A stretch of DNA of 3,487 nucleotides. Origin: Escherichia coli (GTDB lineage Bacteria > Pseudomonadota > Gammaproteobacteria > Enterobacterales > Enterobacteriaceae). The notes below the pieces were generated by a model that worked only from the letters and a program-made list of their open reading frames with translations, ran no database searches and was not told the origin of the DNA. Made by a program: the position numbers and the translations under genes. The first letter of the stretch is position 1. Each line of letters starts with the position of its first letter. Shown piece after piece: positions 2,482 to 3,487 of this stretch. The stretch lies in the NCBI RefSeq assembly GCF_003334335.1, contig NZ_QOWQ01000084.1, one strand, 5' to 3'.

Positions 2482-2676
2482 GTGATATGCAAAAAGAAGT
2501 GCAGGGACTGTGGTAACGCAATTACTCATAATACAGTATGTTGCCCGTATTGTGGCGCTGTCGACCCCTTCGGTTATTACCGGAAGACCGATCGTCTGCT
2601 CTGTTTACTGACGTTACTGCTGCTGCTGATTCTGGTTACCGTTTCAGGCGTCAGTGTATTTGTACTGTTGCAGTAG
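2482..2676 (+). CDS. Small zinc-ribbon protein with C-terminal transmembrane helix (64 aa, GTG start)
   Basis: GTG at 2482 lies 5 nt after GGAGAGGGAG (2467-2476). Product MICKKKCRDCGNAITHNTVCCPYCGAVDPFGYYRKTDRLLCLLTLLLLLILVTVSGVSVFVLLQ has a CxxC-x10-CPYC zinc ribbon followed by a roughly 25-residue hydrophobic segment. Stop TAG at 2674-2676. The track's TTG at 2413 coincides with the predicted -35 box and is unlikely to be the start. Confidence 0.5.
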   Translation: MICKKKCRDCGNAITHNTVCCPYCGAVDPFGYYRKTDRLLCLLTLLLLLILVTVSGVSVFVLLQ

Positions 2677-2702
2677 GTTACAGGGGAGGGATTATCAGGA
2701 AT

Positions 2703-2736
2703 CGGCGGGGCAGAGCGACCCGCTGCGTTTGTTGTG
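2703..2736 (+). terminator. Candidate intrinsic terminator downstream of the small zinc-ribbon gene
   Basis: 7-bp GC-rich stem (2703-2709 pairing with 2719-2725, one G-U pair), 9-nt loop, then a T-rich but interrupted tail CGTTTGTTGTG. Confidence 0.3.
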
Positions 2737-2792
2737 CCAGACAGTAACGCACCGGCTCCCTGCAAAATGGTACCTGAATCAATCACAGTCAG

Positions 2793-2829
2793 GTATTCCG
2801 CCAATCCGTGATCGAATCGAGCGGAATAC
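2793..2829. repeat. Perfect 9-bp inverted repeat GTATTCCGC / GCGGAATAC with a 19-bp spacer containing a tandem ATCGA-ATCGA and a GATC site
   Basis: Read directly: 2793-2801 is the reverse complement of 2821-2829. Spacer is CAATCCGTGATCGAATCGA. Confidence 0.5.
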
Positions 2830-3220
2830 TCAGCCCCGACAAATACGAGTCCCCTTCAGAAGATACAGGCCGGTAATGCCTGAACGCCTGCCCCTCTGTA
2901 CACCATTCCCTTTTGATTTCGAATTCTTTGTTGCCGTTATACTGCTTAATGTTCCCGATCTTCCGGTGCACAGATAACACCGGAGTCATCGTAGCGCGGA
3001 TTCAAGATTCAGGTGACATATTTCCAGACGGAAGCCGGCACGCGATCGTAAAGTTTGTTCATTGTCAGTTCTGCCAGCCGGTGATCGACCGCAGAGTTAA
3101 AGGCTTCCAGCTCCGCAGGGGTAAGTTTATAACGTGTGTGGGAAATCACTTTTTCCAGCGTCTCCCGGGATGAACAACGACGGAACTGCTCTGGTTTTAA
3201 CTTCCATTCGTCTCTCGTTA

Positions 3221-3487
<267 letters not shown>

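Follow-up and report, generated by a model that had tools for sequence, protein, structure and literature searches.

A 9-bp inverted repeat in an Escherichia coli island lies within a putative 72-bp remnant of an ISSso4-like IS21-family element

Ends of IS21-family elements and short derivatives of insertion sequences

Bacterial MITEs such as ERIC/IRU, Correia and RUP are short, non-autonomous elements derived from the ends of insertion sequences (IS), and for some of them, e.g., ERIC and Correia, roles as RNA hairpins have been described. Classic MITEs are present in tens to hundreds of copies. For IS21 itself a reactive junction, (IS21)2, is known, in which the right and the left end of the element abut. 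The ends of IS21-family elements consist of multiple direct repeats and a terminal CA; for IS5376 it is established that IstA binds these repeats and cuts behind the CA, that in vitro it requires two complete repeats at each end and that IstB is necessary for integration (PMC10122671).

The family member to which the sequence described here was aligned is ISSso4, which is found in Shigella and E. coli. A full copy on plasmid pH222-2 has a length of 2639 bp, is flanked by a 7-bp duplication (GTCAGGT), starts with TGCAAAATGGCATCTGAATCGATC... (also given as TGCAAAATGGCATCTGAATCGATCGCAGTTTGGCAT...) and ends with ...GCCAATCCGTGATCGAATAGAGCGGAATACGCA, also given as ...GATGCCAATCCGTGATCGAATAGAGCGGAATACGCA. 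RefSeq annotates the genes of this copy as IS21 family transposase (istA) and IS21-like element ISSso4 family helper ATPase IstB. The end repeat motif tcGATCAnnGnTTTGGCAT occurs five times on the left (offsets 21, 44, 68, 91, and 113) and twice on the right (offsets 20 and 44). All seven of these repeats contain GATC (L009), and from this sequence feature it seems conceivable that Dam methylation might modulate the binding of the transposase.

Composition of the inverted repeat and of the 72-bp element

The window, i.e., the whole stretch of 3,487 nucleotides of E. coli DNA analyzed here, contains an inverted repeat at 2793-2829, which had been singled out by a sequence-only reading as a perfect 9-bp repeat with a separation of 19 bp, enclosing a tandem ATCGA pair and a Dam site. 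This description is accurate. The region reads GTATTCCGC (2793-2801), CAATCCGTGATCGAATCGA (2802-2820) and GCGGAATAC (2821-2829); the arms are perfect 9-mers with a mismatch at the tenth pair, the spacer comprises 19 bp and the centre-to-centre distance is 28 bp. Both the Dam site (GATC, 2810-2813) and the two ATCGA copies (2811-2815 and 2816-2820) are located in the spacer, within 2810-2820. Although this pair is the only perfect 9-bp inverted repeat with a loop of 3-30 nt in the whole window, at least one such repeat also occurred in 27.9% of the dinucleotide-preserving shuffles of the window (n = 1000; mean 0.44 per shuffle). Therefore, the inverted repeat by itself is weak evidence, which does not surpass the level expected by chance.

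The repeat is embedded in a larger unit at 2761-2832, which reads TGCAAAATGGTACCTGAATCAATCACAGTCAGGTATTC-CG-CCAATCCGTGATCGAATCGAGCGGAATACTCA, starts with TG (2761-2762) and ends with CA (2831-2832). Judged from the alignment to the ISSso4 termini, this segment is an ISSso4-like left end joined to a right end, from which an interior of about 2.5 kb is missing, and thus a mini, gene-less derivative of an ISSso4-like IS21-family element. The left-end part (IRL, 2761-2798, plus strand) comprises the tip TGCAAAATGG, a decayed L1 repeat and the inter-repeat spacer GGTATTC. These 38 bp match best to the IRL variant TGCAAAATGGCATCTGAATCGATCACGGTTTGGTATTC of pSTEC299_1 (L134), which reads ...CACGGTTTGGTATTCGAATCG, at 32 of 38 positions. 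The L1 motif is found at an offset of 21 from the tip, as in ISSso4, and its GATC has changed to AATC. The right-end part (IRR, 2800-2832, plus strand) consists of R1, followed by GCGGAATAC(T)CA at the terminus; the last 33 bp are identical to the right end of ISSso4 at 31 of 33 positions, and the offset of the R1 motif from the tip (20) is the same as that of R1 in ISSso4. The R1 direct repeat (2800-2819, minus strand) has the motif tcGATCAnnGnTTGGC, includes the GATC at 2810-2813 and is the presumed IstA-binding site, to which, by analogy to the IS5376 work (PMC10122671), IstA would bind.

Within its 72 bp the element contains neither istA nor istB nor any other ORF, whereas full ISSso4 copies encode both proteins, and it is therefore non-autonomous. 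There is also only one repeat per end (the decayed L1 and R1, respectively) versus five left and two right repeats in ISSso4, which identifies the element as a truncated derivative and not as a complete IS21 end pair.

The composition of the two arms follows from this anatomy. Three parts make up the left arm GTATTCCGC (2793-2801): the G that closes L1, TATTC from the spacer of the IRL and CGC at the deletion junction. In the IRL of pSTEC299_1, the left-end source reads ..TTTGGTATTCGAATCG.., which explains GTATTC in the left arm, and the junction side of this arm can be aligned to ..GATGCCAATCC.. of the ISSso4 right end. The right arm GCGGAATAC (2821-2829) corresponds to the outermost tip at the right end of the IS, located 3 bp from the terminal CA (2831-2832), and is also found at the right end of both inspected full ISSso4 copies and in C-type mini elements; the locus-B mini element has GAGAGGAATAC at this position. 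The 19-bp spacer corresponds approximately to the R1 repeat with the Dam site as its conserved core, and the second ATCGA results from one lineage-specific A-to-C change at 2818 of the canonical ATCGAATAGA (GATCGAATAGAG). In sister lineages at the window locus the right end has retained the canonical ...ACGCA. Furthermore, there is a second local inverted repeat, TACCTGA/TCAGGTA (2771-2777/2789-2795), which shares 3 nt with the first one. A direct repeat (2796-2815 versus 3069-3088, 80%) was also considered and rejected as a chance match, with its second copy inside the coding sequence of the hha-like gene.

Taken together, we consider it highly probable that the 9-bp repeat is an incidental by-product of where the internal deletion fell in a decayed MITE-like element. 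As the repeat lies within a 72-bp IS remnant, it is best regarded as an ordinary remnant of mobile DNA and not as a dedicated regulatory or RNA element.

Genomic context, empty sites and sister elements

The element is located in a convergent intergenic region of 332 bp (2677-3008). Upstream on the plus strand is the gene of a 65-aa hypothetical zinc-ribbon/transmembrane protein (2479-2676; WP_001547002.1 of Nissle 1917, mapped at 100% identity), and on the other side a short gene of an Hha/YmoA-family nucleoid-associated regulator is encoded on the minus strand (3009-3158; WP_071526287.1 of Nissle 1917, present as an ORF in the window), so that the element is positioned 177-248 nt downstream of the stop codon of the Hha-family gene. 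According to the RefSeq annotation of the Nissle 1917 locus, an inovirus-Gp2-family gene is located at 1711-2316 on the minus strand. Between 2677 and 3010 the sequence is 100% identical in Nissle 1917, and about 1,480 complete genomes contain this stretch. RefSeq places no CDS in 2677-3008, which means that the earlier description of the region as ORF-poor was right in substance. Two potential protein-coding ORFs at 2654-2977 (plus strand) and 2789-2989 (minus strand) were rejected, since neither is a RefSeq CDS and the frames are broken in a homologue with about 90% identity, where 13 nt are inserted and 2 nt are deleted.

The boundaries of the element are defined by an empty site. In a homologous island of strain EC101 (L007), which contains the Gp2 gene, hha and an HTH regulator, exactly 2761-2832 is missing; the empty site reads CACCGGATCCCCGGTAAATACG, in context ...CACCGGATCCCCGGTAAATACGAG.... 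A possible target-site duplication at the window locus consists of TCCC (2757-2760) as left copy and would have GCCC (2833-2836) as right copy. With 4 bp, one mismatch and an adjoining variable C-run this duplication is ambiguous, unlike the clean duplications of 6 bp (sister element) and 7 bp (full ISSso4) at two other insertions, and counts as a point against the explanation as an IS remnant.

Several additional features of the surrounding region should be mentioned. In the lineage of the window the Hha/YmoA-family CDS has a length of only 49 aa compared to 70 aa in EC101, and the RefSeq mapping places a CTG at its start; this gene is possibly a paralogue that has been truncated or is in decay. 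The sequence at 2885-2957 (and 2562-2741 in L007), which directly follows the hha-like gene on its downstream side, recurs unannotated with 90-95% identity in many other E. coli loci, and its minus-strand ORFs (66 aa in the window and 59 aa in EC101) share ...NKEFEIKREWC, so that it could represent an unannotated small gene or a pseudogene. At 2703-2735, GGCGGGGCAGAGCGACCCGC followed by TGCGTTTGTTGTG resembles a terminator of the plus-strand zinc-ribbon ORF, which was not called in the consensus scan; if functional, plus-strand transcripts would end before the element. At positions 1-940 an IS66-family transposase gene is present with its C-terminal part (tnpC-like ORF 26-940), and as the IS66 copy near the module in Nissle 1917 has the opposite orientation, the window derives either from another island copy or from an island that is arranged differently. 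Positions 3411-3487 are the left end of an IS3-like element, identical at 74 of 77 positions to the end of an ISEc31 copy (L139), which indicates that the window stops inside another IS upstream of the hha-like gene.

To follow the distribution of the element, a sensitive search was performed with 2740-2870. Besides the orthologous loci it returned many matches of 33-37 nt to 2798-2834 on chromosomes and plasmids; considering all matches to the query, there were at most 33 places per genome, and 338 places were located on plasmids. The two short matches that were inspected are the right end of an IS21-family element. In contrast, the left-end variant carrying the left arm is restricted to the window locus (about 1,550 records at ≥95% identity), and its other matches are only ISSso4 left ends with 82% identity. 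The check for further copies of the motif, proposed by the sequence-only reading, thus has a split outcome: the right arm together with the spacer recur widely as the IS right end, but the inverted-repeat pair has no other copy, and the 9-bp pairing is confined to the window locus and found neither in the parent IS nor in the sister elements. For the records returned, RefSeq has no annotated feature at the matched positions.

Sister elements of 65 bp, which lack the left-arm bases, are present at two other loci and have the junction ...GGTTTGG/CCAA... in common (the slash marks the junction). The chromosomal one (L008, 2501-2565) is located near a GTPase/YfjI island module. Strain M-17 (L143) is empty at this site, and the occupied site differs from it by the additional 65 bp and a duplication of 6 bp (CGTACT/CGTAAT). 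The plasmid-borne sister (L003, L140-142) is found upstream of a TetR/bufferin operon in 62 plasmids at one locus; we rejected the interpretation of the differing left flanks of the plasmid copies as separate loci. In the plasmid collection, from which the spread beyond Escherichia was judged, the hosts are E. coli, E. albertii and K. pneumoniae. A scan of a genome collection (298 Gb) with the pattern TGCAAAATGGN{35,60}GGAATAC was discarded as too unspecific, because it yielded 120 loci from unrelated taxa that all matched by chance, none of them with internal motifs.

The mini-element family thus comprises at least three loci, two of them with one shared junction, and the 72-bp variant occupies one locus. 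The occurrence of one junction at two unrelated loci points to at least one movement of a mini element in a MITE-like manner. MITE-like traits are also evident at 2761-2832, which is small and non-coding and has the inverted ends of a parent IS at its borders, and the presence of these elements is polymorphic, as EC101 lacks the window copy and M-17 the sister copy. In the literature, with ISfinder outside the search, there was no description of this element, no report of an IS21-family MITE from E. coli and no paper on an ISSso4-derived one.

RNA folding and alternative explanations

Based on these findings, an IS21-family element close to ISSso4 very probably inserted between the zinc-ribbon ORF and the Hha-family gene, and the remainder consists of the first ~38 bp of its left end, to which the final ~33 bp of its right end are fused. 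Either a full IS would have lost its interior or a mini element would have inserted. Acting as a transposon end, it would be bound by IstA at R1 and L1 and cleaved after CA. The window copy is probably immobile today and a dead scar, as it has one repeat per end and a decayed L1, while IstA of IS5376, another family member from which this requirement is taken, needs two repeats in vitro. For such a scar a host function would not be expected.

Another counterpoint to this explanation is the stability of the hairpin. The sequence-only reading had proposed a stem, and a minus-strand RNA can indeed form one: the fold reaches -21.0 kcal/mol, which is unusually stable for its composition (z -5.74, none of 200 shuffles as stable), compared to -13.6 kcal/mol for the same hairpin on the plus strand. 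An inner 7-bp stem contains G.U pairs, which on the plus strand would be A-C mismatches. This hairpin is improved by the A-to-C change at 2818, which turns a minus-strand U-U mismatch into G.U, and of the six substitutions by which the IRL departs from the canonical sequence four perfect the second hairpin (2771-2777/2789-2795). These changes, all of which improve local hairpins, could hint at selection for structure. In addition, the hairpin is unchanged in the common lineages and lies on the same strand as the hha-like gene, which is located upstream. It might therefore be assumed that the remnant has been co-opted as a minus-strand RNA hairpin, which could act as a 3'-UTR stabiliser, a processing site or a weak terminator of the Hha-family gene, but we regard this as unlikely for the following reasons. 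The stem is confined to one locus and is not followed by a U-tract, the intrinsic-terminator scan gave no call at the hairpin (its single call is weak and located at 2882-2866 on the minus strand), neither a promoter nor a terminator was called at the element, and Rfam 15 has no match at 2700-2900 even at E ≤ 1, the sole hit at this threshold being an irrelevant eukaryotic lncRNA (3228-3302, E 0.33). The parent IS and the 65-bp relatives have no left arm and hence no hairpin, and they fold with only -3 to -9 kcal/mol versus -22 kcal/mol. Natural variants also disrupt the structure. The left arm is destroyed in L137 and the right arm mutated in L136, which reduces the hairpin to -8 to -11 kcal/mol, and the second hairpin is weakened in L002 and L138. 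The variants with T at 2790 (L002, L010, and L012) or at 2773 (L138) retain wobble pairing on the plus strand only, contrary to the minus-strand preference of the fold. Moreover, in strain CB6886 (L139, 1530-2790) a copy of ISEc31 has inserted within the 72-bp element at about window position 2784 with a 3-bp duplication (ATC), indicating that the scar tolerates disruption. As all copies go back to one insertion, there is no covariation to test. Instead, the eight substitutions were reverted to the canonical state, 3000 random sets of eight substitutions were applied to this ancestor and the whole 72-nt element was folded. In this analysis 16% of the random sets on the minus strand and 78% on the plus strand folded at least as well as the real sequence. 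The result is not significant, and selection for structure was rejected accordingly.

The perfect symmetry of the two 9-mers and their 28-bp centre-to-centre distance are also reminiscent of half-sites of a dimeric island regulator or a site-specific recombinase, in particular as HTH regulators are encoded nearby in the island. We consider this extremely improbable. The pair exists at one locus only, a second copy of the 9-mer is missing from the window also when one mismatch is allowed, and the left arm straddles the deletion junction and is destroyed in L137. A regulator site, one of the functions that had been envisaged, is contradicted by the origin of the arms from an IS tip and a deletion junction and by the homologous island of EC101, in which the element is dispensable. 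The idea of a recombinase site was correct insofar as the sequence is the end of an element moved by an IS21-family DDE transposase, but the 9-mers are not its half-sites, because the protein-binding unit tcGATCAnnGnTTTGGCAT of the parent IS corresponds to the presumed spacer and not to the arms. It is further conceivable that the mini element is an active MITE, which is mobilised in trans by IstA/IstB of ISSso4 and in which the repeat aids the pairing of the ends. The 65-bp relatives with their common junction (TTTGG/CCAA) at two unrelated loci, one of them with a clean empty site and a 6-bp duplication, are in line with mobilisation. Nevertheless, for the window copy this seems very unlikely to us: the 72-bp version occupies one locus, its L1 lacks GATC and the left end differs at 6 of 38 positions, each end has one repeat compared to the two required by IS5376 IstA in vitro (PMC10122671), and the 9-bp pairing is missing from exactly those copies that have moved. 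A combination of both ideas, in which the 65-72 bp ISSso4-end elements form an undescribed IS21-family MITE lineage mobilised in trans despite single repeats and the window copy has been reshaped by substitutions into two hairpins that form the RNA 3' end of the Hha-family gene or stabilise its RNA, appears rather unlikely as well. We therefore keep to the explanation as a decayed transposon scar with an incidental repeat.

Comparison with known systems

The element occurs in about 1,500 complete E. coli genomes without a RefSeq feature under it, and its annotation would close this gap. Recognising it as a transposon scar averts a misreading as operator, sRNA or recombination site, and it can be used as a presence/absence marker for the history of the island module. 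If it is true that the 65-bp relatives have moved as mini elements, an IS21-family transposase would be able to use single-repeat ends in vivo, which is not predicted by the in-vitro data of IS5376.

Compared to the (IS21)2 junction, the window element likewise contains adjacent left-end and right-end sequences, but the order is left then right with the tips facing outward, whereas in the junction the tips abut in the order right then left. A junction promoter or a reactive substrate is therefore not expected. With ISSso4 the element shares the TG...CA termini, the tips TGCAAAATGG... and ...GCGGAATAC(G/T)CA and a GATC-centred motif at equal offsets from the tips; it differs from the parent by its length of 72 bp versus 2639 bp, by the lack of istA and istB and by the 9-bp inverted repeat, which is missing from ISSso4. 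In contrast to the 65-bp relatives the 72-bp copy shows no end-to-end folding, and in contrast to classic MITEs the copy number is very low: the family occupies three or more loci and the 72-bp variant a single one. Apart from this low number the element conforms to a loose definition of a MITE and resembles ERIC/IRU, Correia and RUP, as it is short and non-coding, has inverted ends of IS type, is polymorphic in its presence and has relatives at other loci that are accompanied by a target duplication.
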